From IMG/VR virus record IMGVR_UViG_3300031999_001882, positions 64,001 through 128,000 of that record: DNA of 64,000 nucleotides. One strand, 5' to 3'. Shown one piece after another: positions 15,852 to 60,145 of the stretch. This DNA is from a virus. The translations under genes were made by a program, and so were the position numbers. The notes below the pieces were generated by a model, which was given only the letters and a program-made list of their open reading frames with translations, made no database searches and was not told the DNA's origin. Positions within the stretch are counted from its first letter, which is position 1. The number at the start of each line of letters is the position of its first letter.

Positions 15852-15861
15852 CGTTCACTCC

Positions 15862-31283: not shown

Positions 31284-31503
31284 TGCTGGCCTCCTGTTTC
31301 TCTTTCTGTTTTCGGCGCTTCTTCATCAAGTGTGATTTGCAAACGACATGACCCTGCGCGGCCTTTTTCTTACAGAGCGGACAAAGGCCAAACCGTTTCA
31401 TCGCCTCGTACATGGATTCTGAACGAGGCTTCTTACTTATTTTTTCTGAAAGTCCGATGGCACTAACCCCTTTTCGATATTGCCGATGATTGCGTCGTAG
31501 CAA
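31252..31503 (-). CDS. Small basic zinc-finger protein (true start probably near 31413)
   Basis: CPLC...CKSH followed by a basic tail. Confidence 0.45.
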   Translation of the reverse strand: MLRRNHRQYRKGVSAIGLSEKISKKPRSESMYEAMKRFGLCPLCKKKAAQGHVVCKSHLMKKRRKQKEKQEASNAVRSFDGGL

Positions 31504-32879
31504 CCAGCGCAGTCGAATCGGTAATTCGCCAGCCGAATCAAGTCCACGTTATCGCCGAGCTTGGCAAGCTTCTGTGCCAGCTCCACGCACACCGCACTCA
31601 CATCCTTGTCGCCTTTGATAGCGGCAAATTTGCCAGCGAATTCCTTGTCCTTCGCCAGCCGAGCCATGAACGACTCCACCAAGACCTTCGCCAAGTTCGC
31701 TTCTTTGTCTGTCGAGACAACTTCCTTGACGGCGGCAGGAACTTTCACCGCGCCCATGATGGATTTCGTGCAGATGGCAAACGCCGATTCCTTCTTGGTG
31801 CGACCCTTCTGAGGCTTGAACGACTGATCGCCCATCTTGGATTCAACGCACCGATCAATCTTCCCGGCTTCCTCTTTGTCTTTTGCCAGCACGGTCAGCG
31901 TTCCTTCGCGCTTGTAATAGCCGCCAATGGCTTCACGCCAGCCAGACAATTCACGGGGTTTGACCCGATCCAGCGTCCGGGCGATGGTAGTGATGATCCT
32001 GTCGATCTTGTCCACCATCGAGTTCGAGGTCTGCAAGCCAATGTGCGCCAATGCTTTGCCGAACATCTCCGTATCCACACTCTCGCCTGTAGCCTGCGTA
32101 TAGAAGCCAAAGAGCGTCGCATACTCATCCGCCATGTCCGAGAACGAGGCGTAGCGCTCTGGGAGCGCCGGGTTTACCGGACCATCGTAAACCACGGGAT
32201 TTTTAAGCCATGCGCTAAGTCTGCCAAGACTGGCATCCTTCGGGCTGATTTTCTTGGCCCCATCTTCCTTATATTCCTCACCAGAAACATCCGATTCGTG
32301 CGTCTCGGACTTCACGGGCTTCTGGTCACCTTCGGGCGCGTCTGTTTTTTCCTGATTGCCTTCCTCTTTGTATTCCTCGCCGATCTTGTTATCGGTCGTG
32401 GTTTTCTGAGGAACGGCTTTCTGGTCGCCTTCCGGCTCGTCGAGAACTTTGGTCTTTTCGCCTTCGTTCTCCTTATATTCGTAGCCGATGGCCTCATCCG
32501 TGGTTCCGGGCTTGGTCTTGTTCGGCGTGCCGGGCGTAGCATCCGCCTTCTTCAACCATGCCTTTGGCCCCATCGTAATGTTGTCTGCCAGCGTGTCCTT
32601 GGCCGGAGCCTCGACGTGAGTTTTCTGAGGAACCTTTTTCTGGTCACCCTCTGGCGCATCCGTCTTATCTTGATTGTCGGTGCGCTTATATTCCCCGCCA
32701 ATGGCCTCGTCAGGCTTGGTCGTCTCCTTGGGTTCTTTTTGATCGCCCTTGGGTTCGTCCATGATCTTGGGCTTATCTTCTTCTTTGTAGTTCTTCCCGA
32801 TGCCGGAATCCGTCGTGCCCGGCTTAATATCCGTGTTCTTGTCACCGGGGGTTACATCAGCCTGCTTAGTCCATTGCAT
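31437..32879 (-). CDS. Putative internal head protein with charged repeats
   Basis: Repeated D(E/A)P(K/E)GDQK and IG.EYK units; begins MQWTKQAD. Confidence 0.65.
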   Translation of the reverse strand: MQWTKQADVTPGDKNTDIKPGTTDSGIGKNYKEEDKPKIMDEPKGDQKEPKETTKPDEAIGGEYKRTDNQDKTDAPEGDQKKVPQKTHVEAPAKDTLADNITMGPKAWLKKADATPGTPNKTKPGTTDEAIGYEYKENEGEKTKVLDEPEGDQKAVPQKTTTDNKIGEEYKEEGNQEKTDAPEGDQKPVKSETHESDVSGEEYKEDGAKKISPKDASLGRLSAWLKNPVVYDGPVNPALPERYASFSDMADEYATLFGFYTQATGESVDTEMFGKALAHIGLQTSNSMVDKIDRIITTIARTLDRVKPRELSGWREAIGGYYKREGTLTVLAKDKEEAGKIDRCVESKMGDQSFKPQKGRTKKESAFAICTKSIMGAVKVPAAVKEVVSTDKEANLAKVLVESFMARLAKDKEFAGKFAAIKGDKDVSAVCVELAQKLAKLGDNVDLIRLANYRFDCAGCYDAIIGNIEKGLVPSDFQKK

Positions 32880-36289: not shown

Positions 36290-37291
36290 TTACACGATGT
36301 CTAGTTCAACCACGCCAGCCGTGTTATGGATTCCCATTCCGATCTGTTCCCAGCCGTAGATGTCATACTGACCTTGAGGGACGTTATCGAAGATTTTGAC
36401 TTCGACTTTCTTCCGCTCAGGTAGACGGCCAAGTTTGTCAGGGGTGGTAACCACGAACACTTTGTTGACAGGGTTGCGTGTGCTAACGATCAACTTCATC
36501 CCGAAGATCGACCCAAAATATCCCGTTTCAACGACAGTGTTCAGGGTGACCTGATCTATGTCATTGGAGGGGAATTTCAGGAGGTCTGAGTAGTTCTTAG
36601 GGTTCATCAGAACCGTGGAAGCGATGAGCTGATTCTGCGTGATGCTCCCCACCATGTCGGCCAATACGGTCTTGGTGACCGCGCTGGACGAGAATGGCGT
36701 ATTCGGCGAAACTGCACTCGCCGCTTGGAGCACTCGATAGAATTCGTCATCCTCGGCAATCGCCATCGCAATCGCTACGCGCTCTTTAGCGCGGTCGAAG
36801 ATTGGATAACGACGGATTTGGATGTCCTCATACTTCACGACTTCATCAATCCCTAGAACGAACGTCGGGAATTGCACGCGACGAACATTCGTTTCAAACG
36901 TGGTCGGTGAACCCAAAGCGGCCAACTTCACCGCTCCGAATTCAGGGATGTCCACGTCATAGATCGGAAAATCTCCCTGTGGCATTTCATCCACAAGCAG
37001 AACTTTCCGGTCCACCGAAACGTAGTCCAAACGAGTTTTCAAGGGCAACTGCATGGAGTACGCCAACCGCCTGAACCCGTTAGGGCCAGACAGGATTTGC
37101 GACAGCGCATCTTCCATTTGCTGTGGCGGGACGGTCGGAAGGAGAGGCGCATTACCCGCAGAGCGAGCAAAGCCACCTGTTCCAAGCTGACCCGAACCGC
37201 CAACAGTATTCGCCGCTTTCAGAATTTGCGCGATGAAGCGATCCTTCTGAACTGGCGATAAATCACCCATCAGGTTTTGTCCCGGTAGCAT
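36290..37291 (-). CDS. Major capsid protein (HK97 fold)
   Basis: RLAYSMQLPLKTRLDY..RKVLLVD..PQG..PIYDVD, VLMNPKNYSDL, GWEQIGMGIHN; follows protease, scaffold and decoration genes. Confidence 0.88.
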   Translation of the reverse strand: MLPGQNLMGDLSPVQKDRFIAQILKAANTVGGSGQLGTGGFARSAGNAPLLPTVPPQQMEDALSQILSGPNGFRRLAYSMQLPLKTRLDYVSVDRKVLLVDEMPQGDFPIYDVDIPEFGAVKLAALGSPTTFETNVRRVQFPTFVLGIDEVVKYEDIQIRRYPIFDRAKERVAIAMAIAEDDEFYRVLQAASAVSPNTPFSSSAVTKTVLADMVGSITQNQLIASTVLMNPKNYSDLLKFPSNDIDQVTLNTVVETGYFGSIFGMKLIVSTRNPVNKVFVVTTPDKLGRLPERKKVEVKIFDNVPQGQYDIYGWEQIGMGIHNTAGVVELDIV

Positions 37292-37849: not shown

Positions 37850-38905
37850 TTAGCCGCGATTCAGCGTGTCCTGAGTCCACAGATTCGAGAGACGTTCGAC
37901 CGCGCTTCCCTGCGAGGTTTTTTCAGGACCAAGCACCACAGGGGGCACATCTCCTTCACCTTCGTCAAGACTGCTGAATGTTTCAACACCTTCGGGTTTC
38001 GGTAATCCTTCGGATTTCGGTAGTCCTGCACCAGAAACTTTTGACTGGACCTTTTCGATGACACTTTCCAGCGCGGCAAGCGCCTTGTCGTCAAGTTCGG
38101 CCAGTTCTTTGCGGCAAGCTTCAAGATCAGCTTCCTCGATACCGATTTCGGTCAGCTCATGGAGAATCGCGTCAATGGCGGTAGCCTTCTCCCTCTGAAC
38201 TTCCTCCTCGGCTTTCTTCTGTAGCGCGGCCTTGGCTTCGGCGGCTTCCTTCTTTGCCGCTTCCACCGCTTTCAGGGCTTCGCCACGTTCATCGAGCGCT
38301 CTTTTCAGCAACTTCATGGGGCCGCTCAAATTTTTTGATTTGAGGTCAATGGCCTTGGTGGGTTCACCAACACCCGCCGGGTCCGGCAGACGATTGAAGA
38401 AGTCTTTGATCTTCCGGCCATGTCCCGGCACGGGAGAGATTTTGCCAGCCAAATCTCGATTGGCTTTGGCTTCTTCTTCGCTGACAGCTTCGGTCGGTCT
38501 TTCTTCCTTGCTGGCATCCTGCCGGGGCACTTCTTTTTCATTCAGCGCCCAATTCGCATAGTCAAAGTCCTTGTCGCCGGACGTGGCGATCTTTTTGAGT
38601 CCCGCTTTGACCACGGTCTTTTGCGCCGTCACCCATTTCAGGTAACCATCGAAGGTTCCACCACATTCCTTCTTAATCAGATCACAGATTTGTTCAGGTT
38701 CAATGACCTCGGACTGCTTGCCCTTGACAATCAATTTCTGAATCTCAACGGGCACGACATCTGCGGCCTTCACGACCTTGAGCTTCCCGGCCCCTTCTCT
38801 TGCAAGGAAAAAGGAACGCAGGAACGAATCACGGGCGTTCGAGCCTTCACGAATCATGTATTTCAGCGAGAATTCCATTGTAGATAGCCTCCTATTGGCA
38901 TTCAT
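37850..38905 (-). CDS. Putative scaffolding protein
   Basis: Charged, coiled-coil C-terminal half; lies between protease and decoration/capsid genes. Confidence 0.6.
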   Translation of the reverse strand: MNANRRLSTMEFSLKYMIREGSNARDSFLRSFFLAREGAGKLKVVKAADVVPVEIQKLIVKGKQSEVIEPEQICDLIKKECGGTFDGYLKWVTAQKTVVKAGLKKIATSGDKDFDYANWALNEKEVPRQDASKEERPTEAVSEEEAKANRDLAGKISPVPGHGRKIKDFFNRLPDPAGVGEPTKAIDLKSKNLSGPMKLLKRALDERGEALKAVEAAKKEAAEAKAALQKKAEEEVQREKATAIDAILHELTEIGIEEADLEACRKELAELDDKALAALESVIEKVQSKVSGAGLPKSEGLPKPEGVETFSSLDEGEGDVPPVVLGPEKTSQGSAVERLSNLWTQDTLNRG

Positions 38906-40577
38906 ATTTCGGCGTTTCCGCCGTGTCAGATTTCCTATCTAAGCCCAGCGACTCCCGCCAATAGGCGATCTTCTGCGTTTCAGGCATCTCAGTTTTCGTG
39001 CGTTCGAGCAAGACTTGGGTCGCTTGTCCGCCCCGGTAGAGCCGGAGCAAATTGGTTTGTGCATCTGCCTTGAGAGTCAGGCCCGGTCCGATTTCGATGC
39101 CGATTTCTTCCGGCTTCGGCTGGATCACGGCATAGAGCGCCTTCAAATAGGCCCCTTGGCGCGTGTCGCCCTCAAGAGACTGCCGAACGGCCTTGTCCAA
39201 GAGAATGGTTGCCATGACCTGCGGACCATAGACCAGCTCCGGGGATACCATCGGCGGGCAGGCGGTTTCCGGCGGATTGGCGATCTCCTCCTGCATCCTC
39301 TGGACTTCCTGCTGGGCATCTTGGCGGTGCTCTTGGACAGCTTGGCTGACTTCGTTGATGATCGGAAGCTGGACTTGGGCCATCATCTCGGCCAACAGCA
39401 CGTCCACCTGCTTCATCACCTCTTGGGACACTAGCCCGTCGATCTTGTTCTTGATCGCGTCCTTGATCGTTTCGTCGATCTTGGTGGAAATGGGCTTGGT
39501 TTCTTCCTGAATCTGGTCCAAAAGCGGGGTTGGAGGCACTTCGCCCACCAGCGCATCGGCCTTTACCACCTTGGAAATGGGGGCGATATCCGCCGGGTTG
39601 AAGGAAGCCGGGCCACGGCGCTCTTTGCGGCGCTTTTCCACGAAATCCCCGCCCCCGGTCATGCTGGGGGCGGCATCCATGACCTTTTTGGGGTTGGCCG
39701 CGCCGCTATCCACGGCGGGGTTGCCCTGAAAGGTCGAAGGCGACTGAGCGTTGAGCGCGGACTTATCCAGCGCAGAGCGGAGCGCCACGCGCTCCTCTGG
39801 CGACAGATTGGACAGCGCCATGTCCAGCGTGCACTTCCCGTCCGGGCATCCGGCGGCCTTGGCCTTCCTGTTCTGGTACTGGACGGCATGGGTCAAAAGG
39901 TTCTTCTGGACCGAAGCAAACACTTCAAAGACGTGCGCCTCGATGTCGGCGGGCTGGGCCACGCCGGACAGCTCCGAGAAGGTCACTTTGCGGTTGATCT
40001 CATAGGCTTTGACCCCATCCGACTGCGTGCGGCCCTTGCAGTAGGTGGGCGACATAGGGTTCATATGGGCGCACAGCTCATGCTGGTTGCGGGCGATGTT
40101 GCGGCAGATCGAGCACTCCGCTTCTTCCACGACGCATCCCATCGACACGCTGTTGAGGATTCCGGCTTCGATCTGGCGGGCGATGTCTTGATAAGCTTTC
40201 CGGTCTACAGCGACAAGACACTCAATGTATTTGCCTTCGGGATACCACACCGAGTCCAAGATGATGCCCTTGGCCTTCTCGATGGAGTCCGAGTCATGCT
40301 CGATGTAGAAACCCTTGCCCACGAAGGACTTATAGGAAGCCTCAAGCTCTTTGTCCTCAAAGAAATCCCCGTTGCCATTGGCGATGTTGGCCGTGATCGA
40401 GCGAGCGCGGAAATAAACAAAATTATCGGGGTCATAGTCGAAGGCTTCCGCCGGGAGGAAATCGCTCTTTTTAAGGAGCGTGGATTTCTTCACGACTTCC
40501 TGCCATGTCCATGTCTTGTTGTCGTTCTGCTTTAAGATGTCCGAAATCTCGATGGTCGCTTTTCTGTAAAACATCAA
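38892..40577 (-). CDS. Prohead (capsid maturation) protease with C-terminal extension
   Basis: NGNGDFF..EL..YKSFVGK..IEHD (His), SVSMGC (Ser), CSIC..CAH insert, FSELSGVAQPAD. Confidence 0.85.
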   Translation of the reverse strand: MMFYRKATIEISDILKQNDNKTWTWQEVVKKSTLLKKSDFLPAEAFDYDPDNFVYFRARSITANIANGNGDFFEDKELEASYKSFVGKGFYIEHDSDSIEKAKGIILDSVWYPEGKYIECLVAVDRKAYQDIARQIEAGILNSVSMGCVVEEAECSICRNIARNQHELCAHMNPMSPTYCKGRTQSDGVKAYEINRKVTFSELSGVAQPADIEAHVFEVFASVQKNLLTHAVQYQNRKAKAAGCPDGKCTLDMALSNLSPEERVALRSALDKSALNAQSPSTFQGNPAVDSGAANPKKVMDAAPSMTGGGDFVEKRRKERRGPASFNPADIAPISKVVKADALVGEVPPTPLLDQIQEETKPISTKIDETIKDAIKNKIDGLVSQEVMKQVDVLLAEMMAQVQLPIINEVSQAVQEHRQDAQQEVQRMQEEIANPPETACPPMVSPELVYGPQVMATILLDKAVRQSLEGDTRQGAYLKALYAVIQPKPEEIGIEIGPGLTLKADAQTNLLRLYRGGQATQVLLERTKTEMPETQKIAYWRESLGLDRKSDTAETPKYECQ

Positions 40578-41388: not shown

Positions 41389-43269
41389 CTATACCGCCGG
41401 GCCTTCCGCGCCCGGAGTCACAGGTAACTTCTCTTTTTCTTCCGGTGCGCCAGCGCCCGGCTTGGCTTCTTCGGGCTTACCCGGAGGCGGCCCAAGGCTC
41501 GGACCCTTCATCGGTCCGCCGCCTGCGGGCGCTTTGGTATCCATCAAATCTTTGAGTGGCTTGGGGCGCGAAGGCTTTTCCTCGACAGGCTTGGAATCTT
41601 CCGATGCCTTTTCCTTCATGGCGATGTCTTTCAAGATGTCCTTCATCTTGTCGCCGCGCAGGAAGCGGTCGCGCAACTCTTTGTTCTGCTCATCCGTGAG
41701 ATACGCCTTCTTGAGTTCCTGCCAATCAGGATCGAGGTAAGTGGCTTCCTCTGTCTCGAACTGCTTGGTGACGATCTTAGATGACAGCCCAAAGACATCG
41801 TTGATGATCTCCTGCGGAATGCGGCCATCGGTTCGCATTCGGAGCAACATCTCCTGCTCCTGCGTGTTGTTGAGCAAATTGAGCTTCTGCCAAATGAAGG
41901 TCGGCAGATAATAGCGGTCGTCCGGCACATTCTCTTTGAAGTTGTTGCGAACCTTGTGGTCGATCTCGGCCTTGGTTCGGCGGATGAGCTTCTGCTCACG
42001 GGCGATGGGCAGGAAAATCTTGTATTTGAAAATCTTTTCGATCTCGGCCCGCTCGGTGATATAGCGATGGAACAGCATTTTGAGGTTGACCGTCTGCCCG
42101 GCGTAGCTCGGCGCTTCGCCGCCCAACAGCGCTTCGTTGGCGAACAGCCCGGTCATAATGCGCTTGCCCACCCAATCGAACCACGGAATGAGGTTTTCAA
42201 TCTTGTCCTTGGTCCCGACATAATCCACCTGCACGCCAAAGTGGTAGATGATGTTGTAGTCCGGGTCATTCGCCGCGCTGACCAAAAGCTGTTTGAACTT
42301 GTCAAAATGCTTCTTCGACGGAATCCAGCCCTTCGCCTCGGAACCGAGCTTGAAAATCTTGATCGGGAACATATGCCGATCTACGAAGGTGTATTGGAGA
42401 TACCGAAGCTTGTCCTCGAACAGCAAATCCTTGAGCACACGCTTGACCAAGGACAGGCCGCGCAGGGTGTATTTCGATGTCCGGTTAGCGAAGTGGATCA
42501 CCCGGTTGGCATCGAGCATATAGGGTTTCCCCCGACCCACAGACTCCACGAAATGCTTAGGCATCAGGCCCACGATGGCCCGGTCCACCGGGTCATTGGA
42601 GCCGACGACTTTCTGCAACTCAGGATCGGGCAGGAGGAAATAGGCGGCGGAGTTCGAGACATAGGTGCGCTTGATGTCGATGTATTCCGGTGGATACTGG
42701 TTCCACTCGGACCATTCGAGATTGTTCTTGTCCCACATCCCATACCACATCGACTCGCCCAAAAGATGCTTGTCACGGAGCATCCAGACCGCCATTTGCA
42801 GGAGGTCCAGCTTTTCCTTGATATAGTTGAACTTGGATTTTACGGATGGCTCATCGACATGAAGCTCGAAGTCGGAGAGCGGAAAGGTCGAATGGATGTC
42901 AATGATCGAGCCGACGTAAGGCTGAAATTTGTAGTAGTGACGTAGCCGCTTATTGACCTCTTTGAGATTGTCCTCTGGGAACAGGAGGAGAACGGTATCC
43001 CAAAGCGGATCAACATAGAGAAGCGGAGTGCGTACTGTGTCTTGGGTGGAGGAGGACTGAAACAACTGCTGAAAGTCAGCTTGGCGCTTAAAGCCTTTTC
43101 CGTCACCCAACTGGCCGCCGCGCCGTGTGCCTGTGCCATCGGCTTGCGCGATCTCCGCCAGAGCTTCGCCCGCCGACTCCAACAGCTCGGACTGCTGGGC
43201 AGAGCGATGGAAGGCCCCGGAGAAGCCTACTGGCTCGAATGATTCGTCTGGATTACTATTTTTCGCCAT
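41389..43269 (-). CDS. Portal protein
   Basis: 626 aa; VIHFAN...RGLSLVKRV and IMTGLF..ALLGGE..SYA segments; upstream of the protease. Confidence 0.85.
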   Translation of the reverse strand: MAKNSNPDESFEPVGFSGAFHRSAQQSELLESAGEALAEIAQADGTGTRRGGQLGDGKGFKRQADFQQLFQSSSTQDTVRTPLLYVDPLWDTVLLLFPEDNLKEVNKRLRHYYKFQPYVGSIIDIHSTFPLSDFELHVDEPSVKSKFNYIKEKLDLLQMAVWMLRDKHLLGESMWYGMWDKNNLEWSEWNQYPPEYIDIKRTYVSNSAAYFLLPDPELQKVVGSNDPVDRAIVGLMPKHFVESVGRGKPYMLDANRVIHFANRTSKYTLRGLSLVKRVLKDLLFEDKLRYLQYTFVDRHMFPIKIFKLGSEAKGWIPSKKHFDKFKQLLVSAANDPDYNIIYHFGVQVDYVGTKDKIENLIPWFDWVGKRIMTGLFANEALLGGEAPSYAGQTVNLKMLFHRYITERAEIEKIFKYKIFLPIAREQKLIRRTKAEIDHKVRNNFKENVPDDRYYLPTFIWQKLNLLNNTQEQEMLLRMRTDGRIPQEIINDVFGLSSKIVTKQFETEEATYLDPDWQELKKAYLTDEQNKELRDRFLRGDKMKDILKDIAMKEKASEDSKPVEEKPSRPKPLKDLMDTKAPAGGGPMKGPSLGPPPGKPEEAKPGAGAPEEKEKLPVTPGAEGPAV

Positions 43270-46861: not shown

Positions 46862-46952
46862 GATTCCTCTGGTTCCACTTTTCCGCCGCCCACCACCAAG
46901 CTCCCAGCACCCACGACAACGGCACAGCAATGATCTTGAGCAACAGCCTCAT
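46854..46952 (-). CDS. Small hydrophobic peptide (32 aa)
   Basis: Manual translation MRLLLKIIAVPLSWVLGAWWWAAEKWNQRNRD; ATGA-coupled to the upstream gene. Confidence 0.45.
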   Translation of the reverse strand: MRLLLKIIAVPLSWVLGAWWWAAEKWNQRNRD

Positions 46953-47134
46953 CCTTGTGTTTGGAGAGGTTTGACGGTGACCCGGTACTCTTGGCCCCTA
47001 AAGCTGACCGTACCCTCGGCTCCATCTGCAAGATAGTTCGAGTTCGTAAGCCCACCACCAACTCCTTCTGCCAAAGCGTCAAGGCATTCCCTGACGTGCG
47101 TCTCCTGAATCTCGGCCACTTTGGTCCAGCTCAT
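46949..47134 (-). CDS. Small protein with N-terminal WTKxA tag
   Basis: MSWTKVAE...; GGAGG RBS. Confidence 0.65.
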   Translation of the reverse strand: MSWTKVAEIQETHVRECLDALAEGVGGGLTNSNYLADGAEGTVSFRGQEYRVTVKPLQTQG

Positions 47135-47232
47135 CGGCCCCTCCCCACAAACCACGCCCCGACACACGCCACCATCCCGCCCAAAAACGGGAGGAGTTGT
47201 TCAAGAGGACACAAAACGCAGTAGAACTTCAT
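47131..47232 (-). CDS. Small hydrophobic peptide (33 aa)
   Basis: Manual translation MKFYCVLCPLEQLLPFLGGMVACVGAWFVGRGR; ATGA overlaps at both ends. Confidence 0.45.
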   Translation of the reverse strand: MKFYCVLCPLEQLLPFLGGMVACVGAWFVGRGR

Positions 47233-47711
47233 CCTCTGAAATAAACAATGCCCTGCCGTGTCTGGGCAAAGCGTCCATCCGTCAAATAGGTATCCCAACC
47301 ATCAGCAATCACAAGCTCCTGCGCGGCTTCCTGCGCGTTAATGAGCGAGCTTTGGATAGAGATGATCCATGCTTGGTCAAACGATTCGGGGGTGGCTTCC
47401 AGCATCTTCTGGACGTGCGCCACCGCGACACGCTCTGCCTTATAGGTGTCCCAGAAGAAGCGGTACTCTTGGGCGCGGCAGGTGAATGTGCCGCCGTCCT
47501 TGTCCGCTTGGAAGTTTTCGATGTCCGTAGCCCGGCAACGAAGCGAACTCGCCAGATCAGCGCGGACGCTTTCATCGCTCAGCTCAGAGGCATCACGGAT
47601 CAGACGGATTGCGTCGCGGGTTTCAACCCCACGTTCCGCGAGCCGTTCAAGCCGTTCCAGCTTATCCTCGTATTGAGGTTCCATAATTTTCCGTTGAGTG
47701 TTCTCTCTCAC
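47229..47711 (-). CDS. Hypothetical protein, shorter paralog of 47712..48461
   Basis: Shared LERLAE.GVET..AI.LIR.ASELS and YRFFWD...AERV segments. Confidence 0.7.
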   Translation of the reverse strand: MRENTQRKIMEPQYEDKLERLERLAERGVETRDAIRLIRDASELSDESVRADLASSLRCRATDIENFQADKDGGTFTCRAQEYRFFWDTYKAERVAVAHVQKMLEATPESFDQAWIISIQSSLINAQEAAQELVIADGWDTYLTDGRFAQTRQGIVYFRG

Positions 47712-48461: not shown

Positions 48462-48462
48462 T

Positions 48463-48639
48463 TTATTTCCCTGTGTCCGGCTTCTCGTCCTTATAGAAGT
48501 AGTCCCGAACAAAATTAGTCAGCACTTCATTCGTCAAATCGTCGTAACCCTTACCCATCTCCCGCGCAATCTGGCTGAGCTGTTGGTCCAGCCATGTCGT
48601 GATCGGGACATACGCCCGCTTACGACGTTCTTCCGGCAC
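48463..48639 (-). CDS. Putative ribbon-helix-helix DNA-binding protein (58 aa)
   Basis: Manual translation MPEERRKRAYVPITTWLDQQLSQIAREMG..DDLTNEVLTNFV; coupled on both sides. Confidence 0.5.
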   Translation of the reverse strand: MPEERRKRAYVPITTWLDQQLSQIAREMGKGYDDLTNEVLTNFVRDYFYKDEKPDTGK

Positions 48640-49889: not shown

Positions 49890-50051
49890 TTATTTACCCA
49901 CCCATTTGCCGCTTGCCTTGCGCGGCTCTCCGCCGCCCTTCTTCCGGCTCCCGCAGGCTTGGTGATATTTGCCAAGCGACCCCGGCGTGCTCATGGCTTC
50001 CACGCCACATTTGTCGCACACAACACGGATCGCCGCTTGGCTGACGCTCAT
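49890..50051 (-). CDS. Small basic zinc-binding protein (53 aa)
   Basis: Manual translation MSVSQAAIRVVCDKCG...HQAC; ATGA-coupled. Confidence 0.5.
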   Translation of the reverse strand: MSVSQAAIRVVCDKCGVEAMSTPGSLGKYHQACGSRKKGGGEPRKASGKWVGK

Positions 50052-50290
50052 GCAGGCTCCTGCGGCGGCATCTGGCTCCGCGCCCCGCTATCTGGCGGCT
50101 CCGGCAGATCAGAACCCAACAACGCCAAAGCATCATCAATCAAATCCCGCACCGCTTCGTTGCATTCGTCGGTGGTGTTATGGGCGCACTCGCCCGCCGT
50201 GTGCTTGTAGGCTTCCACCAACACCCTGATCGCCTGTCGTGTTTTCGGTTCGTTAGAAGCAGATGGCCCGGCTGTCTTGGTCCAGCTCAT
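50048..50290 (-). CDS. Small protein with N-terminal WTKxA tag
   Basis: MSWTKTAG; AGGAGG RBS. Confidence 0.7.
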   Translation of the reverse strand: MSWTKTAGPSASNEPKTRQAIRVLVEAYKHTAGECAHNTTDECNEAVRDLIDDALALLGSDLPEPPDSGARSQMPPQEPA

Positions 50291-50487
50291 TGAAATCCTC
50301 CTGCTACCGATCCCACAACCGCTTCGGCGGCTTCGATAGCCTCTATCACTTCGTCAAAATGATCGCCTTCCGGGTCTTTAATCAGGCCCCGGTCAACCAA
50401 ATTTCGCATGGCCGCCAGCGAAATCACCAACGCATTTTCGAGACTCTTTTCGCGGCCTGCTTCTGGTGCGGCTGTCTTAGTCCACAT
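50287..50487 (-). CDS. Small protein with N-terminal WTKxA tag
   Basis: MWTKTAA; AGGAGG RBS. Confidence 0.7.
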   Translation of the reverse strand: MWTKTAAPEAGREKSLENALVISLAAMRNLVDRGLIKDPEGDHFDEVIEAIEAAEAVVGSVAGGFQ

Positions 50488-52111: not shown

Positions 52112-52339
52112 CTACCCGTTGCGTTGCCCGTTACTGCTTGCCACGGCTCTTAACGCCTTCAAAGTATCTTCATCCAGACGTGATCCTAAGCTGAAATCCA
52201 ACCTCTCTGGCCGGGCTTGCGCCGGGCGCTCTTGTCTTACAAACGCCTGCGGCTGACGACGAACGACCTTCTGCATCGGCCTTACGGCCTGAGTCTTTCG
52301 ATCTAAGAGTTCTACAGCCCGGTCGAGACTTCCCATCAT
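52112..52339 (-). CDS. Small hypothetical protein
   Basis: ATGA-coupled to the giant gene. Confidence 0.55.
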   Translation of the reverse strand: MMGSLDRAVELLDRKTQAVRPMQKVVRRQPQAFVRQERPAQARPERLDFSLGSRLDEDTLKALRAVASSNGQRNG

Positions 52340-55300
52340 TTCGTTGGTTCGAGTTCTTTCTCAGCGATAGTAAATTGCGATCCAGTACGCTGGCCGTAAG
52401 AATCCAGCGTAATCACTTCATAGCTTTTGTCCGCAGAGATCGCAGAAGCCACACGCTTGATGATCTCGGCTTTGTCACCGGACACCAACCAGACGTGAGA
52501 GCCTTCCGCGAAGCGATACCCGGCGTTCTTGAAGAAGTCGGCTGTCGATTGAAGCTTCATAGAGAGCTTTTTGCGGCGAAGCTTCTTGGATTCTTTGTCC
52601 AGCTCCCACGCGCTTCCTACAAGGTCCGAGGACTTGAACTGATCGAAGTAGCGGGCCGCACGCTGGGCGGCTTGCGCTGGCGGCAGATCGGACTTGGTAG
52701 CGATCTGATCCAAGAGCGCAGTAACGGCGGCTTTGACATCGCCGCCTCTCAGGTAAGCTTCTTCGCCAGCCTTCCAGACCTTTGAAATGTCCATCATATT
52801 GATCTGGTAGCCATACACCGCATCTTGAATGAGGTGCGCCATCTCATCCTTTTGCTTGCGCGTAATCTTGCCGGGAACTGCCGCCTGTTTCTCCACAGAT
52901 GTGTCGCCGCCGATAATCCCGTTCTCAACAAACTCGTCCTTCAATTCAGGGAACCGCTCGGCGAGCTGTTCAAAATAAGCCCCCCATTCAGCGAGTTCGC
53001 CGTAGCTGAGGTTCTGCTGACTCACCCAATTCTGCCAGCCTATCGCATAATCTCTGGCTTCTTGGGCAGTCTTGAGGACAGCATAGGGAGCCTTCTTGAG
53101 TTCTTTGGCCGCCGTGACTTCGGCAGTCGCAGGAGTGGCTTCGGCTTCCTTGGCCTTCTCCTCTTTGCGCTTGGCCCGGTCCTCCTGCTGTTCCTTGAGC
53201 CGCTTCTCCATCTTCTCAAGCGCGTCCACGGTTGACGCGATCTCTGAGGGGTCGGCTTTGTCCACATCCAAATCCTTGAGCTTGCGCCGGAGCGACTTCA
53301 CCTGATCCGACAATCCTGATTCGACTTCCATGCTGGCCTCCTTTAACTCGAACGGTTCTTCTCCTGCATAGGTGAAGATGGTTTTGCCAGTCTCCGCCAA
53401 GTCCTCTAAAGGAGAACGCAACTCATACTGCGGATACCACCAAAACTTTGGCTTGCTTCCGAAATCAATCTCTCCGTTGTCATCCAAGCTTCCATCGGAG
53501 ATGATGAGCGAATCAGTCAAAGCGCCGATCTGCTCTGGCCGAACTAACATATAGCCGTTGCCAAACATCGGCTCAAGATAATCCAGCAAACGCGAATCGC
53601 TCTGATCCTCAACATCCTGTCGGATTTCCTCTAAATCATCACCCGTTGCGGTGATCTCAAGATTCTTATTTGGCAGAACCTTCCAGCTTATACCGCCGCG
53701 AGCCTTCTTCTCCATTGACCCAAACGCACTCCCGGTCATAATACCCAGCGCCGCCTGCACGCCTCCGGCATCTGCCCCGGCCCCGATAAGCGCCTGCGAG
53801 ATGATGTGAAGCATCACCTTGCCTTGGCTCTTATACTGGTCCAAGACCCCCATGTAATCGCCGTAGTGCCCCTTGGTGGTGGCGGGCTTGCTCTCGATGT
53901 GCTTGACCATCTCGATGATGTCCGGGTCTTTCGACAGCATATCAATGGCCTGCTTAATCTTCTGCTCTCTGGACACTTCCGGCCCGCCGAAGCGATCTAA
54001 GCTGGCCGCCATCTCCATCGGCTCCTCCGGTTGTGCTTTGGCCTTGCCGATTTCCTCCGCATTGGCATCTTGCGCCTGCTGGATCGCGGCCTTGATTCCG
54101 GCCTCGTCGCCCTCAGTCGCATCACTCAAATAGCGGCGAATCTGGGTCTGAATCTTGGAGGTGGTCACCGAATACTTCTGCGTGTTGAAGAAGGTTTCTC
54201 CGGTGTTGCTTCGGAACACGATGGGGGTCGCATAGTTCACCAGCGCCCAGCCACCCGGATACTTCTGGATGGTCAAGTGCTCTGTGCCCCAGCGATCCCG
54301 CTTGTCTTTGGGGAACGAATCGTGCGCGAACATCTCAATAACCTGCTCGTTGGAGGCGGCCTCAACCTTCATTGCGGCGGTCGGCTTGCCCGGCCACTCA
54401 TCGCCTTCGGACATCGCCACGCAGTTCGCGTGCGCGAAAGAAGTCGGCATCACTTCCCCCGGCTCAGATTTGGAATCCACGATCATATCCCCGGCCTCGA
54501 TTGCGTTGCCGCATATCGGGCACGTCTCTCCGATCTCTCCTTCTTCGGCAGATCGCGCCTCTAGCTTGGAATAACACTCGTTACACAACGCTTCGTTAGG
54601 GTCATCGCCTTCGCCCCAGCCTTCCGGCATCTCCACGGGCTTCCCGCATTGAGGACACGACACGCGCTGAGCGGCCTTCTGCTTGCGCCAGCTCTTGAAC
54701 TCCTCGCTGTTGCGAACTTCGTCGCTTTCCTTCTTCTCCGGCGACTCGCGCCACTTCTTGTCCTCGTCTTGGAGCCGCTTCACGTCCTTCTGATTCTTGG
54801 GATTGTGTTCCAGAGGAGGCCAGCCAGAAGCGTCAACCTTGGTCGGCATATTGTCCGGGTCACAGCCGCATTCGTTGACGATATCATTCATCTTGCCGCA
54901 GGTCGGGCACTTGTGAATCCCGGCTTTGCGGTCATGCTTCTCGGCCAGCTCCTTCTCGAAATCCGCCAGCTCCTTACAATCCTTGCACCAGCGCGAGCCT
55001 TTCTCGGCATCGGCCTTGTGACAGAGCGTGCACTTCTGGGCGGAGGTCACCACTTGAAGGCCGCCGTGGTCATCCAAGAACCAGATGGTCGGATAGAAAT
55101 TGCCCTGATCCACCGCTTTGACGGCGGCAATCAGCTCGTCCCACTCCGGCGACTCGGCGAGCTTCTTACCGCTCTGATAAGCGGCGTACATCCCGCCAAG
55201 CTGTCCTTCGGTCTGGATCACGATATCGTCCTCGGCAGGCTCCTGCATCTCCTCCGAGTCAAACTCCTCCACCTCGGCTTCGGCTGTGCGCTTGCTGGCT

Positions 55301-58300
55301 TTCTTCTCTGATTTCTTTTGTTGCAGGATGGCTTCTGCTTCCTTGATTCGCTTGGCAACATACGCCTGCGTGCCCTTATCGGTCACATCGTTCATGCGAC
55401 TCATCCAGTTATCAATGAGCGCTTCCAGCTCGGCTACTGATTTATCCTTGAGATCGCTGGCTGTGCGCTTGCTGGCGATGGTGTCTTTCCAATAAACCCA
55501 AGCGACCGTCACCTTGTCATTCTCCACTTCGTCGATCTTGACGGCATAACCCGCCGAAGCATAAGCGCCCTTCACGCCGTTAAAGCCCAGCTTCGCCAGA
55601 TCACCATTGGGTTCCACAACCTCGAACTCGCCCAGATCAAAGATGTTCCCGTCATACCGGAAGAAGTCGCCCTCTCCGTTCTCGACGTAATCCAGCTCCT
55701 TCTTCTCCTCGTCAGTCAGTTGAGAATAATCCATGAGCGGAACAGTCTGCTCGTTCTTAACCACCAATCCAGTCGGCCCCGCTTGGTCATCGGCCTTCTT
55801 TTCAAGGGGTGGTTTCCGGTGCTTAACCGGGATATAGTGATGTTCGTCATCCAAGCATTTGTCGCATTGTCCACGTCGTTCGCGTGTCTCGTTGTCGTGA
55901 TTTTTGAGCGGGTGTCTGCATACGGCACATGGCGGGGCATCAACATTCTCTTTGAGCGGAGCATCAGCCTTGCGTCTGGCGGCCTGCGTCGGCGGCTTGC
56001 CCTGTAGCTCGGCAATGCCTGTGCTGATCCCTTCGCCCACGCCACGGTCGTACTCCTCCCACAGCTCATCAGCATTCTCGGCCTTGTTAAAGGCGCTGGC
56101 AAGAAACTCGAAGGGCGTATATTGCCGACCATTCTGCTCGGCCTCAAACGCTTCGTCGGCGATCTTTTCCACGTCGAGATTGCCTTGGGCATCTTTATAG
56201 CCTTGGAATTCGCCCTTGTTCGTGATGATGATGTTGAATCCCTCGTCATAGCCCATGCGGTACGCTTCATCCGGCATGATCGGTTCTTCTGCGCCCCGGC
56301 GACCCAGCGCCGAATAGAGACGCACCTTGGCTTCTTTGGAGAGCGGCTTGAGCGAGGACTGCTTGGTGGGTGGAATGTCGCCTTCTTCCAGATGCTCGAT
56401 CTCGCCGCTCTCGGTGAACGCCAGATCATTGGCCTCCGCATCCTCTTTGATGTATTCGTCGGACTGCTGGTACTCAAGCTCGGCATAGCCGTCCTTCTCA
56501 AGCTGACTACACAACTCCTGACGAACCTCGTCGATATACTGGATGAACTCGACGTACAGCTTCTCAAATTCCTCCGTGGACATCCCGGCTTCTGCGGCCA
56601 GATCATCCATGCTTCCGGGGGTATTGTCCTCCACCTTGACGGTGTATTTGTGGGAGTAATGATGGTCGATGCTCTTGAGGTCGATGTAAAGCGACTCATA
56701 GAACTTGGCGAAGATATTGAACCGCTCGTTCGGGTGCGCTTGCAGGAACTTCGCCACGTCCATGTGCGCGGTAAAGCTCACGCCGGAACCCTGCGTCGAG
56801 CTGAGATCGTAATTCACCTTCGGGTTCACAAACCCGTGCTCTTGCAAATCGCTCTCGGCATTCTCTTTCCAGAAATCAACGTCCGCCATTTCGTAATACT
56901 TATAGCGCACCTTGTCCTTGGCCTTCTCATCCAGATCATCGAAGGTAAAGAGATCGACCTTCCGGTAGAAGGTGTGCTTGGGCTTGCGCGGCTCGTCGGC
57001 AAATCGCTTCATAAAGCTCTCCTTGGCGGCGAGGCGCGAAGCCTCTTTGCTGATATTCTTGGCATAGGCCATCGCTTCTTCGCGTGAATCAAATGTCTTG
57101 TTGCCAGCGCCGGACTTATCCCGCTCGCCGCCGTGCTGAATGCCATCCACCAGCACCATGAACTTTCCGCCCAAAGCTTCCTTGATCGAAACATTCTCAG
57201 GCATCGACGACTTCCTTGTGCGCCGCCCGACGCGCTGTTCCGTCGGATTCACATAGACATTGTTATCCTGATCCTTGAAGAAGTCAGCGCCAAAAGAATC
57301 GAACTGGCCGCCGTTACGTTCATAGGGATCGAGAAACACCAGCTTGAAGTCCGTCGCCAAATCGCTGGCCGACATATAAAGGAACTCTGTGTTCGGCTCC
57401 TCGTCCTCTTTAAGCGGCTCGCCCGTCAGCGCTTGGTAATCCTCTTTGCTCCAATCGTTCGCATAGACCCGGAGAACCATCTCTGCCGTCTCGACTTCTC
57501 CACCCGGCGGGACCAGCATATAGACTCGATGGCCGCTCTGCATATCGGTGTCGGTCAAAAGAGTCCAGCCCGTGCGAATCTCTCCGATGTTCTCTACCGC
57601 ATTCCAGTCCACCTGAGTCTTGAGCGCTTCGCCATCGCCTTGAGTCAGCTCGGCGGGCAATGTCTTGAGCATTGCCACGGCTTCCGCGCCACTACCTTCC
57701 GCATATTCGGTCAGGGTAGCCGAGTAATTCACCTCGGTCCGCGCCCAATCCAAGAGGAATGCCAACTGCTCATCAGTCAGCGCGGCGGCTTTGCGGCTCA
57801 CCTTCTTAGCTTCAAACTCTTTGCGGTGTTCTTTCTCCTGCGAGATGGCGTGGTCCAGCACTTCCTTGAGCGCTGGGCTGGCATCTTCCTTCTGCCCGCG
57901 ATACTCGTCGATAGCGGCCTGCTCCTGCTCCACATCGCGCTTGACGATCTCAGCATCCCGGTCGGCTTTGCGCTTGGACGCGAAGGGCATCTTCATCTGC
58001 GCGGGGTTCTCTGGCGGTGTCAGCTCTTGTTTGATCGCTTGGTGAACGCCGGAGTCCTCGGCATACTTCAACAGGTCTTTGGCATCCATAAAAGCTTCAC
58101 CGTTGTTTTCAAAGGACGACTCCACAGCTTCCCATAAGAGTTGAAGCACGCGCTCGGAAGGCTCATACGCTTCGAGTGCTTCCTGCTTCTCCGCCGGAAG
58201 CTCCTTCGCCAAATCTTCCTTGACCCATTTCAGGGCTTCATCCTTACCCCATACGTCAAACGATTCCCGGTATTCCTGCTGTTCTGCATTCGTAAGAGCT

Positions 58301-59670
58301 TCCTCATCAAGCACCGGATAATCGGCCATGTCGCGCTCAATGCCTTCGGCAATCGCTACCTTGTCGGCGGCATCTTTATGGACCAGCAAGAATTCAACCC
58401 AGCCCACCGCCCAATGACCTGACTTTGCCACGACCACGCCATTGCCTTCGCCGCCCAAAGCTTTGAGCGCCGCATCGAAATTGGTTTTCTCAAGCGCTTC
58501 GGAGTCCCGGTTCTGCGTGAGCACGACATAATAATCGGAGTAGTCGTCGCCCATATAATTCTCGGCAGGCTTCCACAGTTCGAGCGCCTTGCGCTTTAAG
58601 CTGGCCGTGTCATAACGACCCTTGATGGGCGGCGCGGTCTTTTTGCCTGTGCCTTTGCAATAGGGGCACGTCTCCAAAGGCCCGGCTCCGGTGCGTGACT
58701 TCCCATAACCAGCGCAATACTCACACTCTGCTCCGTCTGCCGCCTTCGCTGTCATGCCGCCCTCCAAATAGACGTTGCCATCGTCGCCAACAATAGCATC
58801 GCAGTTCCCGAAGGCTCTGGCAATGTCGCTCAGCTTCTCACCCACATCGCCCAGCCCGCGATCCCAGAAGCCCGCGCCATGCCCACAGCGCGTCAGCCAG
58901 AAGTCATGGCCCGCCTGCTCATCGTCAATCTCATTTAAGAGATCGCCTGCTTGCTGGCGAAACGCCGCGCAATCGGCCTTGGCCTTCTCGATGCTCTCCG
59001 GGGCAATATCCTCGATCCCGAAGTTCTGATCCAGAGGTTCGCCGCCCGTCTCCGGGTCAGAGTTGTCGTTCGACGACCATAGCGCCGCTTCGAGATAGGC
59101 CGACACAAAGGGATCAAGCCCTGCGGCTTGCCGAGATGTCTTGGCCTGCTCATCGACCAGCCGCTTGTTGTGCTCGCCCTGCATATGCTCGAACGACTCC
59201 TCAGATTCATTTAAGGGTTCGCCCTTGGCTCGCTTGGCTTTGATCTTGGCTTCCATCTCCTCCTGCCACGCTACAGTCCCGAACTGAGCCGCCGACTTGG
59301 TTGCGGGCTTAACCTTGGCCCAGCACGCATCACACAGCGCCCCAAAATTCTGTTCGTTGAACATCCGCTCTCTGGCAGGCTGGCCGTCGTTCTTGCATTG
59401 GCGAGCCGCATCCCGGTTCCCGAAGTCCCGCTCTAAGATGCCCGTCTCGCAGGAGTCGCACAGCCCAGCCGCCGCGCCATAGGTATTGATGATGGTGTCC
59501 TTGCCACACTTCTTACACTTGCCTTGGGCGGCAGAGCGCTTGGAAGCCGCGCACGCGCAGGTTCCCCCGCAGGCGCACGTCTCCGACTCTTGACGAATTT
59601 TTGAAGGAGCTTTTTTGTCTTTTGGCTCCACGATATCTGTCCAATGATTTTTCAATACCGCTTTATCCAT
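52336..59670 (-). CDS. Giant mosaic (polyvalent-type) protein, 2444 aa
   Basis: Concatenated unrelated acidic modules, CxxC fingers and a ferritin-like helix pair, separated by basic [KR]-x-A linkers. Confidence 0.85.
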   Translation of the reverse strand: MDKAVLKNHWTDIVEPKDKKAPSKIRQESETCACGGTCACAASKRSAAQGKCKKCGKDTIINTYGAAAGLCDSCETGILERDFGNRDAARQCKNDGQPARERMFNEQNFGALCDACWAKVKPATKSAAQFGTVAWQEEMEAKIKAKRAKGEPLNESEESFEHMQGEHNKRLVDEQAKTSRQAAGLDPFVSAYLEAALWSSNDNSDPETGGEPLDQNFGIEDIAPESIEKAKADCAAFRQQAGDLLNEIDDEQAGHDFWLTRCGHGAGFWDRGLGDVGEKLSDIARAFGNCDAIVGDDGNVYLEGGMTAKAADGAECEYCAGYGKSRTGAGPLETCPYCKGTGKKTAPPIKGRYDTASLKRKALELWKPAENYMGDDYSDYYVVLTQNRDSEALEKTNFDAALKALGGEGNGVVVAKSGHWAVGWVEFLLVHKDAADKVAIAEGIERDMADYPVLDEEALTNAEQQEYRESFDVWGKDEALKWVKEDLAKELPAEKQEALEAYEPSERVLQLLWEAVESSFENNGEAFMDAKDLLKYAEDSGVHQAIKQELTPPENPAQMKMPFASKRKADRDAEIVKRDVEQEQAAIDEYRGQKEDASPALKEVLDHAISQEKEHRKEFEAKKVSRKAAALTDEQLAFLLDWARTEVNYSATLTEYAEGSGAEAVAMLKTLPAELTQGDGEALKTQVDWNAVENIGEIRTGWTLLTDTDMQSGHRVYMLVPPGGEVETAEMVLRVYANDWSKEDYQALTGEPLKEDEEPNTEFLYMSASDLATDFKLVFLDPYERNGGQFDSFGADFFKDQDNNVYVNPTEQRVGRRTRKSSMPENVSIKEALGGKFMVLVDGIQHGGERDKSGAGNKTFDSREEAMAYAKNISKEASRLAAKESFMKRFADEPRKPKHTFYRKVDLFTFDDLDEKAKDKVRYKYYEMADVDFWKENAESDLQEHGFVNPKVNYDLSSTQGSGVSFTAHMDVAKFLQAHPNERFNIFAKFYESLYIDLKSIDHHYSHKYTVKVEDNTPGSMDDLAAEAGMSTEEFEKLYVEFIQYIDEVRQELCSQLEKDGYAELEYQQSDEYIKEDAEANDLAFTESGEIEHLEEGDIPPTKQSSLKPLSKEAKVRLYSALGRRGAEEPIMPDEAYRMGYDEGFNIIITNKGEFQGYKDAQGNLDVEKIADEAFEAEQNGRQYTPFEFLASAFNKAENADELWEEYDRGVGEGISTGIAELQGKPPTQAARRKADAPLKENVDAPPCAVCRHPLKNHDNETRERRGQCDKCLDDEHHYIPVKHRKPPLEKKADDQAGPTGLVVKNEQTVPLMDYSQLTDEEKKELDYVENGEGDFFRYDGNIFDLGEFEVVEPNGDLAKLGFNGVKGAYASAGYAVKIDEVENDKVTVAWVYWKDTIASKRTASDLKDKSVAELEALIDNWMSRMNDVTDKGTQAYVAKRIKEAEAILQQKKSEKKASKRTAEAEVEEFDSEEMQEPAEDDIVIQTEGQLGGMYAAYQSGKKLAESPEWDELIAAVKAVDQGNFYPTIWFLDDHGGLQVVTSAQKCTLCHKADAEKGSRWCKDCKELADFEKELAEKHDRKAGIHKCPTCGKMNDIVNECGCDPDNMPTKVDASGWPPLEHNPKNQKDVKRLQDEDKKWRESPEKKESDEVRNSEEFKSWRKQKAAQRVSCPQCGKPVEMPEGWGEGDDPNEALCNECYSKLEARSAEEGEIGETCPICGNAIEAGDMIVDSKSEPGEVMPTSFAHANCVAMSEGDEWPGKPTAAMKVEAASNEQVIEMFAHDSFPKDKRDRWGTEHLTIQKYPGGWALVNYATPIVFRSNTGETFFNTQKYSVTTSKIQTQIRRYLSDATEGDEAGIKAAIQQAQDANAEEIGKAKAQPEEPMEMAASLDRFGGPEVSREQKIKQAIDMLSKDPDIIEMVKHIESKPATTKGHYGDYMGVLDQYKSQGKVMLHIISQALIGAGADAGGVQAALGIMTGSAFGSMEKKARGGISWKVLPNKNLEITATGDDLEEIRQDVEDQSDSRLLDYLEPMFGNGYMLVRPEQIGALTDSLIISDGSLDDNGEIDFGSKPKFWWYPQYELRSPLEDLAETGKTIFTYAGEEPFELKEASMEVESGLSDQVKSLRRKLKDLDVDKADPSEIASTVDALEKMEKRLKEQQEDRAKRKEEKAKEAEATPATAEVTAAKELKKAPYAVLKTAQEARDYAIGWQNWVSQQNLSYGELAEWGAYFEQLAERFPELKDEFVENGIIGGDTSVEKQAAVPGKITRKQKDEMAHLIQDAVYGYQINMMDISKVWKAGEEAYLRGGDVKAAVTALLDQIATKSDLPPAQAAQRAARYFDQFKSSDLVGSAWELDKESKKLRRKKLSMKLQSTADFFKNAGYRFAEGSHVWLVSGDKAEIIKRVASAISADKSYEVITLDSYGQRTGSQFTIAEKELEPTK

Positions 59671-60145
59671 TGCAATTACTCCTTGATTTCAAATTCGCCA
59701 AAGCGCTTTGATATGCCTTACTCGCCCTATGTTCGTCAGCGAACATCCCAAGATGATGACACTTGCCATCAAATTTAATTGCGGCCTTCCATCGTCTATT
59801 ATGCTTATCCCATGAAATGCCAACGAATTTTGACGAGAGCTTCCCTTCCTTTTTTCTTTTCTGATTGGATACGTTTTCTCTATTCGTGACGATCTGTAGA
59901 TTCTCTCGCTGATTGTTCAAGCCATTGCCATCCTTGTGATCGGTAACAAACCCTCGTTGCGGAACACCTGCGACACAATGGTGCATCAGTCGCCTTCGCC
60001 GCAAGCCATCTCCAAGAATTTCATTTCTGGACGCATAAAAAACATTGTGAGTGCGACAAGCACTCCACTTAAATTGATTAAGCTCGTTAAATATATCGTC
60101 ATCGACAAAAGCTACCCTGCCTTGAGATAATTTAATCTTCTTCAT
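59663..60145 (-). CDS. HNH-AP2 homing endonuclease
   Basis: TDHKDGNGLNNQRENL (HNH) plus SSKFVGISW...WKAAI...HLGMF (AP2). Confidence 0.9.
   Translation of the reverse strand: MKKIKLSQGRVAFVDDDIFNELNQFKWSACRTHNVFYASRNEILGDGLRRRRLMHHCVAGVPQRGFVTDHKDGNGLNNQRENLQIVTNRENVSNQKRKKEGKLSSKFVGISWDKHNRRWKAAIKFDGKCHHLGMFADEHRASKAYQSALANLKSRSNCNG

Follow-up and report, generated by a model that had tools for sequence, protein, structure and literature searches.

A giant modular phage protein with a repeated basic-x-Ala linker: a candidate capsid cargo polyprotein and its possible processing by the prohead protease

The 64,000-nucleotide stretch of DNA analyzed here (the window) comprises bases 64001-128000 of IMG/VR virus record IMGVR_UViG_3300031999_001882, a 144,307-bp record with an estimated completeness of 83% that derives from an uncultured, contractile-tailed phage. 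Located within the window is a giant modular open reading frame (ORF), referred to as P0001 (52336..59670), whose frame is intact over 2444 codons and is preceded by a good ribosome-binding site (AGGAG, 8 nt 5′ of the ATG). P0001 and all other window genes described below lie on the minus strand. The 2444-aa product is a chain of about two dozen (~24) small, mostly acidic modules, including ~8 zinc ribbons, and has a net charge of −144, with values of −13 to −42 in segments of ≥100 residues. The genes for portal, protease, scaffold, and capsid are close to P0001 and share its strand, an arrangement that recurs in relatives. The original prediction described the protein as a precursor made of small phage domains and [KR]-x-A linkers, possibly cut into injected effectors by the protease encoded at 38892..40577. 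As argued below, there is roughly a 50% chance that P0001 is a capsid-loaded cargo polyprotein of the polyvalent type whose linkers are cut by the phage’s own prohead protease.

At least eight modules of P0001 have separate, module-sized, free-standing families in other phages, in agreement with the claim that they resemble stand-alone small phage genes. For example, the module at residues 184–303 (58762..59121) is matched end to end by the 141-aa stand-alone family phrog_1915 (E 1e-29; profile positions 5–139 of 141, corresponding to P0001 residues ~181–301). This family comprises small hypothetical genes in 325 phage records, and homologues are located in the terminal-repeat (early) regions of Caulobacter phages. 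The module at residues 363–560 (57991..58584), assigned to the H-W-A-V-G-W family phrog_3906, has ~60 stand-alone counterparts in viral contigs, mostly 150–230 aa in length, whose start codons align with the linker immediately before the module. Likewise, phrog_5162, a stand-alone family of 201 aa, covers residues 900–1095 (56386..56973) nearly end to end (~residues 904–1090). Stand-alone homologues of 97 and 147 aa correspond to residues 1296–1398 (55477..55785), those of 82–104 aa to residues 1895–1980 (53731..53988), those of 105–152 aa to residues 1993–2105 (53356..53694), and those of 60–97 aa, ending exactly at residue 2253, to residues 2200–2256 (52903..53073). The module at residues 1772–1885 (54016..54357) has many stand-alone homologues of 106–150 aa and is also found in many large modular proteins. 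A representative zinc ribbon, recognized by its cysteine positions and by phrog_3931, carries two CxxCxGxG motifs at residues 312–342 (58645..58737). The abundance of such small relatives is evident from a HMMER scan with residues 1236–2435, which returned 939 proteins at E ≤0.001; among the best 150 of these matches, 62 are ≤160 aa and 24 are >900 aa in length.

Structure prediction depicts at least one module as a compact unit set between flexible joints. An AlphaFold model of residues 348–572, built from 37 sequences, has a mean pLDDT of 89.6, with values of 88–98 in the module versus 53–69 in the linker stretches at both ends. The model matches uncharacterized viral proteins only, and no convincing match to a solved structure was obtained (Foldseek E 0.1 or worse; VIA Z ≤5.5). 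A search of the ESM Atlas with residues 892–1125 similarly returned unnamed viral clusters only. Pfam searches of P0001 and its relatives produced zinc-ribbon and chance matches only, PDB sequence searches with P0001 and with the 37-sequence profile gave no match, and no enzymatic or peptidase domain was detected in P0001. None of the modules matched a known anti-host family in Pfam, PDB-sequence, solved-fold, or ESM Atlas searches, and the earlier label of anti-host “effector” is therefore a guess. A MAFFT alignment spanning several modules stacked all of the small proteins on a single module and was not used for folding.

The linkers that join these modules are real. All 17 linker strings quoted in the original prediction are present in the P0001 translation, as are the sites quoted for the portal, protease, and scaffold. 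The pattern [KR][KRQ]xA is observed 17 times in P0001 versus 5.8–6.0 expected from shuffled sequences (z 4.6–4.9), and the serine-headed form, S[KR][KRQ]xA, six times versus 0.4 expected (z 8.8). In all other proteins of the 144-kb genome, pooled, [KR][KRQ]xA occurs 64 times against an expectation of 62. The enrichment extends to 28 other large homologues (representatives at <50% identity), in which S[KR][KRQ]xA is found 26 times versus 3.7 expected (z 11.5), or ~7-fold in excess, and the reversed motif once versus 3.8 expected. Reversed motifs in P0001 itself are at expectation, which rules out an artefact of a composition rich in Lys, Arg, and Ala. Because the motif is enriched in the large homologues and missing from the free-standing ones (S[KR][KRQ]xA has 0 occurrences in 62 of them), it is, to judge from its distribution, a property of the joints and not of the modules. 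The consensus over 224 sites reads A/G, S, K/R, K/R, x, A, and A-S-K-K-T-A is repeated four or five times in several proteins. Thus, the proposed [KR]-x-A linker stands as a directional signal, and its true consensus, (A/G)-S-[KR]-[KR]-x-A, is sharper than first described. Two linkers (residues 1401 and 1460) have 18 identical bases in common. Across sites, however, Ser, Thr, Lys, and Ala are encoded by varying codons, which places selection on the peptide rather than on a DNA repeat; linkers as DNA-level recombination sequences were ruled out on the same grounds, as codons vary among both the linkers and the N-terminal tags described below.

The claim that linkers coincide with module borders also held up, with 13 of the 17 strict sites placed at borders in a reading of the motif map. 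In the N-terminal half of the protein, linker sites occur at residues 44–47 (59530..59541), 180–183 (59122..59133; directly before the phrog_1915 module), 359–362 (58585..58596; a stretch of low pLDDT), 566–569 (57964..57975), 626–629 (57784..57795), 888–891 (56998..57009), and 1124–1127 (56290..56301). Further sites follow at residues 1232–1235 (55966..55977), 1401–1404 (55459..55470; stand-alone homologues stop at ~residue 1398), 1460–1463 (55282..55293), 1663–1666 (54673..54684; a zinc ribbon is next), and 2261–2264 (52879..52890). The clearest junction is the linker at residues 1986–1991 (53698..53715), where the stand-alone family on one side ends at ~residue 1983 and the next begins at ~residue 1991, directly after Ala1990. 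In general, when the ends of short homologues are mapped on P0001, one family stops 6–10 residues before the linker Ala and the next starts 0–10 residues after it. Such bracketing is observed for the Ala at 1404, 1990, 2112, and 2263, and also at degenerate linkers near residues 1771, 1888, and 2194. An independent count of BLAST-match ends, based on seven related giant proteins and one N-terminal fragment, placed 44 of 110 ends near motif sites versus 28.8 by chance (p ~0.0015).

Modules are readily shuffled among related proteins. A word-index search recovered four large relatives (P0002–P0005; 1407–2320 aa) that carry P0001 modules in a different order, as judged by BLAST. Positions are kept at the extremities, by the first 49 residues and the last ~110. 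The former includes a leader with a cysteine cluster (residues 1–43; 59542..59670) that is N-terminal in relatives too and runs into the first linker, and the latter corresponds to the module at residues 2334–2444 (52339..52671), which is C-terminal in two relatives as well. A helical module at residues 2108–2192 (53095..53349) is duplicated in two relatives and is N-terminal in several large homologues. Since the closest relative has a capsid protein that is 95% identical and yet a reshuffled giant gene, the comparison points to a fast turnover of cargo in an otherwise stable virion. In another relative, gene calling split the giant gene into a 363-aa and a 1970-aa ORF that overlap (L003:8920-10011 and 10001-15913); the break is inside a module of the 363–560 type and reflects a frameshift or assembly error. 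The public phage collection yielded no full-length relative of P0001. Among cultured phages, the nearest capsid proteins are those of Bacillus phage G and the cluster C mycobacteriophages (~27–29% identity), for which no cleavage-site data were found in the literature.

A motif akin to the linker is also found at the very start of small neighboring proteins. Six ORFs with strong Shine–Dalgarno (SD) sequences in this genome start with M-(x)-W-T-K-x-A, versus ~0.002 expected by the authors’ own estimate. The window contains four of these (starts at 50487, 50290, 47134, and 32879), and the other two are just outside. The former encode a 66-aa protein beginning M-W-T-K-T-A (50287..50487), an 80-aa protein beginning M-S-W-T-K-T-A (50048..50290), a 61-aa protein beginning M-S-W-T-K-V-A (46949..47134), and a 480-aa protein beginning M-Q-W-T-K-Q-A (31437..32879). 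The last has low-complexity repeats and an internal duplication that begins with another copy of the tag, W-L-K-K-A-D. In relatives, the same tags occur on non-homologous small proteins, and AT-rich distant relatives have M-x-W-L-x-K-K variants between portal and protease. W-T-K-T-[SA] is also found within linkers of P0002 and P0003, and a W-tagged 505-aa protein adjoining the portal in relative L077 contains a phrog_5162-type module. The W tag is absent from all 86 free-standing module homologues, and no homology of the tagged small proteins to P0001 modules was detected at E < 0.01.

The enzyme proposed to act on these sequences is a 561-aa protein (38892..40577) that matches phrog_18299, a family of head-maturation proteases (E 2e-22), and gives no match in Pfam or PDB sequence searches. 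Its core spans residues ~51–215, preceded by an F-Y-R-K-A N-terminus and followed by a conserved basic-basic-Ala motif. His94 and Ser145 are invariant in an alignment of six sequences. The best PDB match of the predicted structure is T4 gp21 (5jbl; E 3e-4, TM 0.61, rmsd 3.2 Å), followed by herpesvirus proteases. The protein singled out as the protease in the original prediction is thereby supported as a real prohead protease of the gp21/assemblin fold. A further feature is a conserved Cys3His insert at residues 155–171 (C-x-x-C ... C-x-H), a probable zinc site that is located inside the catalytic core and does not vary among six divergent homologues. The positions immediately upstream of the protease gene (40574-40885) encode a small zinc-ribbon protein with orthologues in four relatives (L002:26452, L076:9666, L077:9661, and L079:9175); in all relatives examined, it has the same M-(S)-F-x-[KR]-x-G/A start as the protease.

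Members of the gp21/assemblin clan recognize short motifs of the form P3-x-P1: L/I-x-E in T4, S/A/G-x-E in phiKZ, and V/L/I-x-A followed by Ser in the assemblins, which cut after Ala. A [KR]-x-A linker with a putative cut after Ala would fit this P3-x-P1 geometry.

Several lines of evidence associate proteins of this kind with the capsid. Residues 50–199 of P0005 (1810 aa) are homologous to this phage’s prohead protease and also match phrog_18299, and the P0001-like modules of P0005 are located behind this N-terminal domain. The linker dialect of the fused protein differs from that of P0001 and reads [VIL]-[KR]-A-[GSA] (8 observed versus 1.4 expected). G002, a more distant relative whose capsid protein is 33% identical, encodes a modular protein of 956 aa in the scaffold position, between the protease and the decoration/capsid genes; this protein has a 363–560 module and a helical, Lys/Glu-rich end that was read as a coiled coil. 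Between the portal and protease genes of the same relative, a 377-aa ORF on the opposite strand (L007:4609-5742, minus strand) resembles, by eye, a TnpB/IS200-605-like transposon protein. In L080 and L081, several modular proteins are found in a row beside portal or terminase-like genes.

Candidate sites are also found in the head proteins of the phage itself. The major capsid protein (36290..37291), identified by a PHROG hit, has an F-x-R-x-A-G site in its N-terminal ~50 residues, which precede the PHROG-aligned fold, and the site is also present in relatives. The scaffold-like protein (37850..38905) has a V-V-K-A-A site, replaced at the same place in distant homologues by V-V-R-A-S and V-I-K-A-A. 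The portal protein (41389..43269), also identified by a PHROG hit, has F-H-R-S-A at residue 20 and K-R-Q-A-D at residue 62. A 464-aa protein encoded next to P0001 (50645..52039) has a basic-basic-x-A-S site near residue 30 that its orthologues keep across an indel-rich stretch; the orthologue in L003 contains a P0001 module (residues 2195–2258). Overall, the candidate sites of the capsid, portal, scaffold, protease tail, and 464-aa proteins are kept in relatives. A broader pattern, aromatic-x-basic-x-Ala/Gly, was considered as a genome-wide signal of head proteins and rejected, as its 52 sites are scattered through the proteome and the single capsid and portal sites are post hoc.

The region 5′ of P0001 holds an HNH gene and then a 1436-aa ORF, P0006 (60941..64000), that runs off the window and continues to G000:C1:129251. 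P0006 has a nucleotidyltransferase-like N-terminus, starting with a motif similar to that of minimal nucleotidyltransferases (G-S ... D-x-D), and CxxCxGxG zinc-finger motifs. Orthologues of P0006 carry weak or faint precomputed DarA_C flags, and P0006 itself has neither a Pfam hit nor a DarA hit. Its N-terminal part recurs in a 969-aa protein of L081, the C-terminal part of which is homologous to a 266-aa protein of the window. The latter is encoded at 47712-48512, adjacent to a paralogous gene for a 160-aa protein (47229-47711). In L080 and L081, large modular proteins end in a C-terminal domain homologous to the 266-aa protein, and one of them has a weak DUF7249 flag. The region of head and cargo genes contains two inserted HNH homing-endonuclease genes (59663-60145 and 46202-46930). 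The gene that separates P0006 from P0001 is absent in the closest relative, L002, and L003 has an AP2-domain gene in its place.

From these observations, we infer a course of packaging, cleavage at a particular scissile bond, and ejection, as well as the roles of the modules. P0001 would be expressed along with the head genes and would enter the procapsid. There, the protease (38892-40577) would cut the (A/G)-S-[KR]-[KR]-x-A linkers, most likely after Ala, with a basic residue at P3 and Ala at P1. The products, some two dozen small acidic domains and zinc ribbons, would remain in the head, exit with the DNA at infection, and act before phage gene expression. The small neighboring proteins would use the same code, in the form M-(S)-W-T-K-x-A, as a combined N-terminal address and cut site. 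The parts of this proposal differ in strength. That P0001 is virion cargo is likely; that the prohead protease cuts the linkers has about an even chance; and an injected anti-host function would be less probable than either.

A number of observations weigh against this reading. Four of the 17 strict sites are inside conserved folded modules (residues 238, 495, 1502, and 2405), and some borders have a degenerate motif only; near residue 1888 there is no basic residue, and at the border near residue 1771 two residues separate Lys and Ala. The predicted basic P3 is unlike that of T4 and the herpesviruses, and the modest quality of the protease model (mean pLDDT 59, with 70–90 in the core) adds a further caution. 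A net charge of −144 makes P0001 an odd partner for packed DNA. Apart from the zinc ribbons, no module has a recognized function, leaving the term “effector” unsupported. Finally, a comparison of motif frequency between head and tail proteins, suggested as a check in the original prediction, revealed no clear difference: the observed/expected ratio is 1.23 for the other head-side proteins versus 1.00 for the tail-side proteins, with values of 1.38 versus 1.08 for the first 70 residues. Most candidate sites in head proteins are in wholly conserved stretches, and their conservation does not single out the motif. The proposal of a capsid precursor is favored by the protease-fused and scaffold-position homologues and draws no clear help from the frequency of the motif in other head proteins.

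An alternative explanation is that P0001 is a polyvalent virion protein that is never cut and is injected whole, like DarB of phage P1 or the virion RNA polymerase (vRNAP) of phage N4, with the linker serving as a basic peptide that contacts DNA or scaffold, or as a modification site. This would account for the lack of motif enrichment in other head proteins and for the two basic residues that each linker provides to a very acidic chain, and for polyvalent proteins, an action in part as whole chains has been proposed in the published work (PMC5512222). A directional six-residue motif with an invariant Ala, however, exceeds what a flexible or basic linker needs. The motif is common to dozens of divergent proteins, is present at the N-termini of unrelated small proteins, falls exactly between independently folding units, and shifts its dialect in the protease-fused lineage. 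An uncleaved chain is accordingly rather unlikely. Less likely still is a non-virion role, in which P0001 is a late or middle intracellular multi-domain protein encoded among structural genes, its modules were joined by gene fusion, and the linkers are relics of fused gene starts. The free-standing homologues are untagged and are probably ordinary cytoplasmic proteins, and the location of phrog_1915 homologues in the early regions of Caulobacter phages would suit such a role. Relics would be expected to decay, though, and the linker peptide is conserved despite its varying codons and is enriched ~7-fold in 28 independent proteins. Moreover, the free-standing homologues do not begin with the motif, and the fusions involving protease and scaffold favor a place in the capsid.

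If the linkers are cut, the responsible enzyme could in principle be a different one, either a host protease acting after ejection or another phage protease. Dibasic sites are common targets of cellular proteases, and there is a precedent in staphylococcal phage 80-alpha, which uses the host Prp protease on the N-termini of its capsid and scaffold proteins. Cleavage of the Prp/L27 type was set aside for P0001, given that the linker is not preceded by a conserved hydrophobic motif. The fused and scaffold-position homologues point to the procapsid interior, and linker dialects vary by phage lineage, which suits a phage-encoded enzyme better than a conserved host one; another protease is consequently improbable, slightly more so than a non-virion role. 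Cleavage by the prohead protease within the procapsid thus remains the preferred reading.

A more general form of this reading, which falls somewhat short of an even chance, is that one lineage of large tailed phages uses a two-part code consisting of an M-x-W-T-K-x-A address and an internal A-S-K-K-x-A cut site, both read by the head protease. Any small early gene product could thus be pre-packaged and injected, with the giant polyproteins serving as bulk carriers and the dialect co-evolving with the protease, in what would be a general and undescribed strategy. If the linkers are indeed cut in the head, a single gene would deliver about two dozen ready-made small proteins at DNA entry, earlier than any expressed gene, and the occurrence of the modules as free-standing, probably early, genes in other phages would be explained. 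By extension, hundreds of uncharacterized small phage families would become candidates for host takeover in the first minutes of infection or for counter-defence. Tag and linker together would form a simple sequence rule for predicting capsid cargo from genomes alone, and would also be a natural peptide for address and release, with which foreign proteins could be loaded into phage heads.

Among known systems, P0001 bears the greatest overall resemblance to the polyvalent proteins of Iyer, Burroughs, Anand, de Souza, and Aravind (2017). Both combine many unrelated domains in one very long phage chain (2 to ≥15 in polyvalent proteins; ~24 in P0001), are encoded beside packaging or head genes, have a mosaic and fast-evolving architecture, and are proposed to be delivered with the DNA as infection begins. 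The published class is built on enzymatic effector domains and on processing via built-in zincin-type peptidase domains, and the word “linker” is absent from the searched text (PMC5512222). In contrast, the modules of P0001 are small uncharacterized phage families and zinc ribbons with no detectable enzymatic domain. P0001 also lacks a peptidase domain, and its processing is proposed to occur in trans at a repeated linker, with the prohead protease as the enzyme. Even where a protease is built in, as in the distant P0005, it is a prohead serine protease and not a zincin-type peptidase. A second point of comparison is the P1 Dar system (DarA, DarB, and Hdf), in which very large proteins are packaged beside a processed helper. 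The weak or faint DarA_C flags of the P0006 orthologues recall this system; P0006 itself, however, has no DarA hit, and P0001 has no methyltransferase or helicase domain of the DarB kind.

With respect to mechanism, the T4 system of IPI–III and Alt offers a protease of the same gp21 fold class, including the His/Ser active site. The tag resembles the T4 address peptide, which is ~10 residues long and ends in L/I-x-E, in being a short N-terminal peptide that is shared by unrelated small proteins and ends in a putative cut motif. The differences are in the motif (W-T-K-x-A or S-K-K-x-A instead of L/I-x-E), in the form of the cargo (mainly one polyprotein of ~24 modules instead of single-domain proteins), and in its charge, as the modules are acidic and the T4 internal proteins are basic. 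Many internal head proteins of phiKZ and SPN3US are likewise processed at a short P3-x-P1 motif, in some cases more than once per protein, by gp175 and gp245, respectively (PMC10052503, PMC5694885). In SPN3US, this processing takes off N-terminal propeptides that are subsequently degraded (PMC10052503). The pieces between the proposed cuts in P0001, by comparison, are folded modules with free-standing relatives, and cutting would release products rather than propeptides. Herpesvirus assemblin shares the protease fold and the proposed Ala at P1, and the V-K-A-[GSA] dialect of P0005 is near the assemblin release-site pattern; the predicted P3 of P0001 is instead Lys or Arg, and the substrates would be cargo modules and not scaffold alone. 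Taken together, the closest published concept is that of polyvalent proteins, and the closest mechanism is the T4 address peptide with gp21 processing, from which the present system differs in its motif and its cargo.

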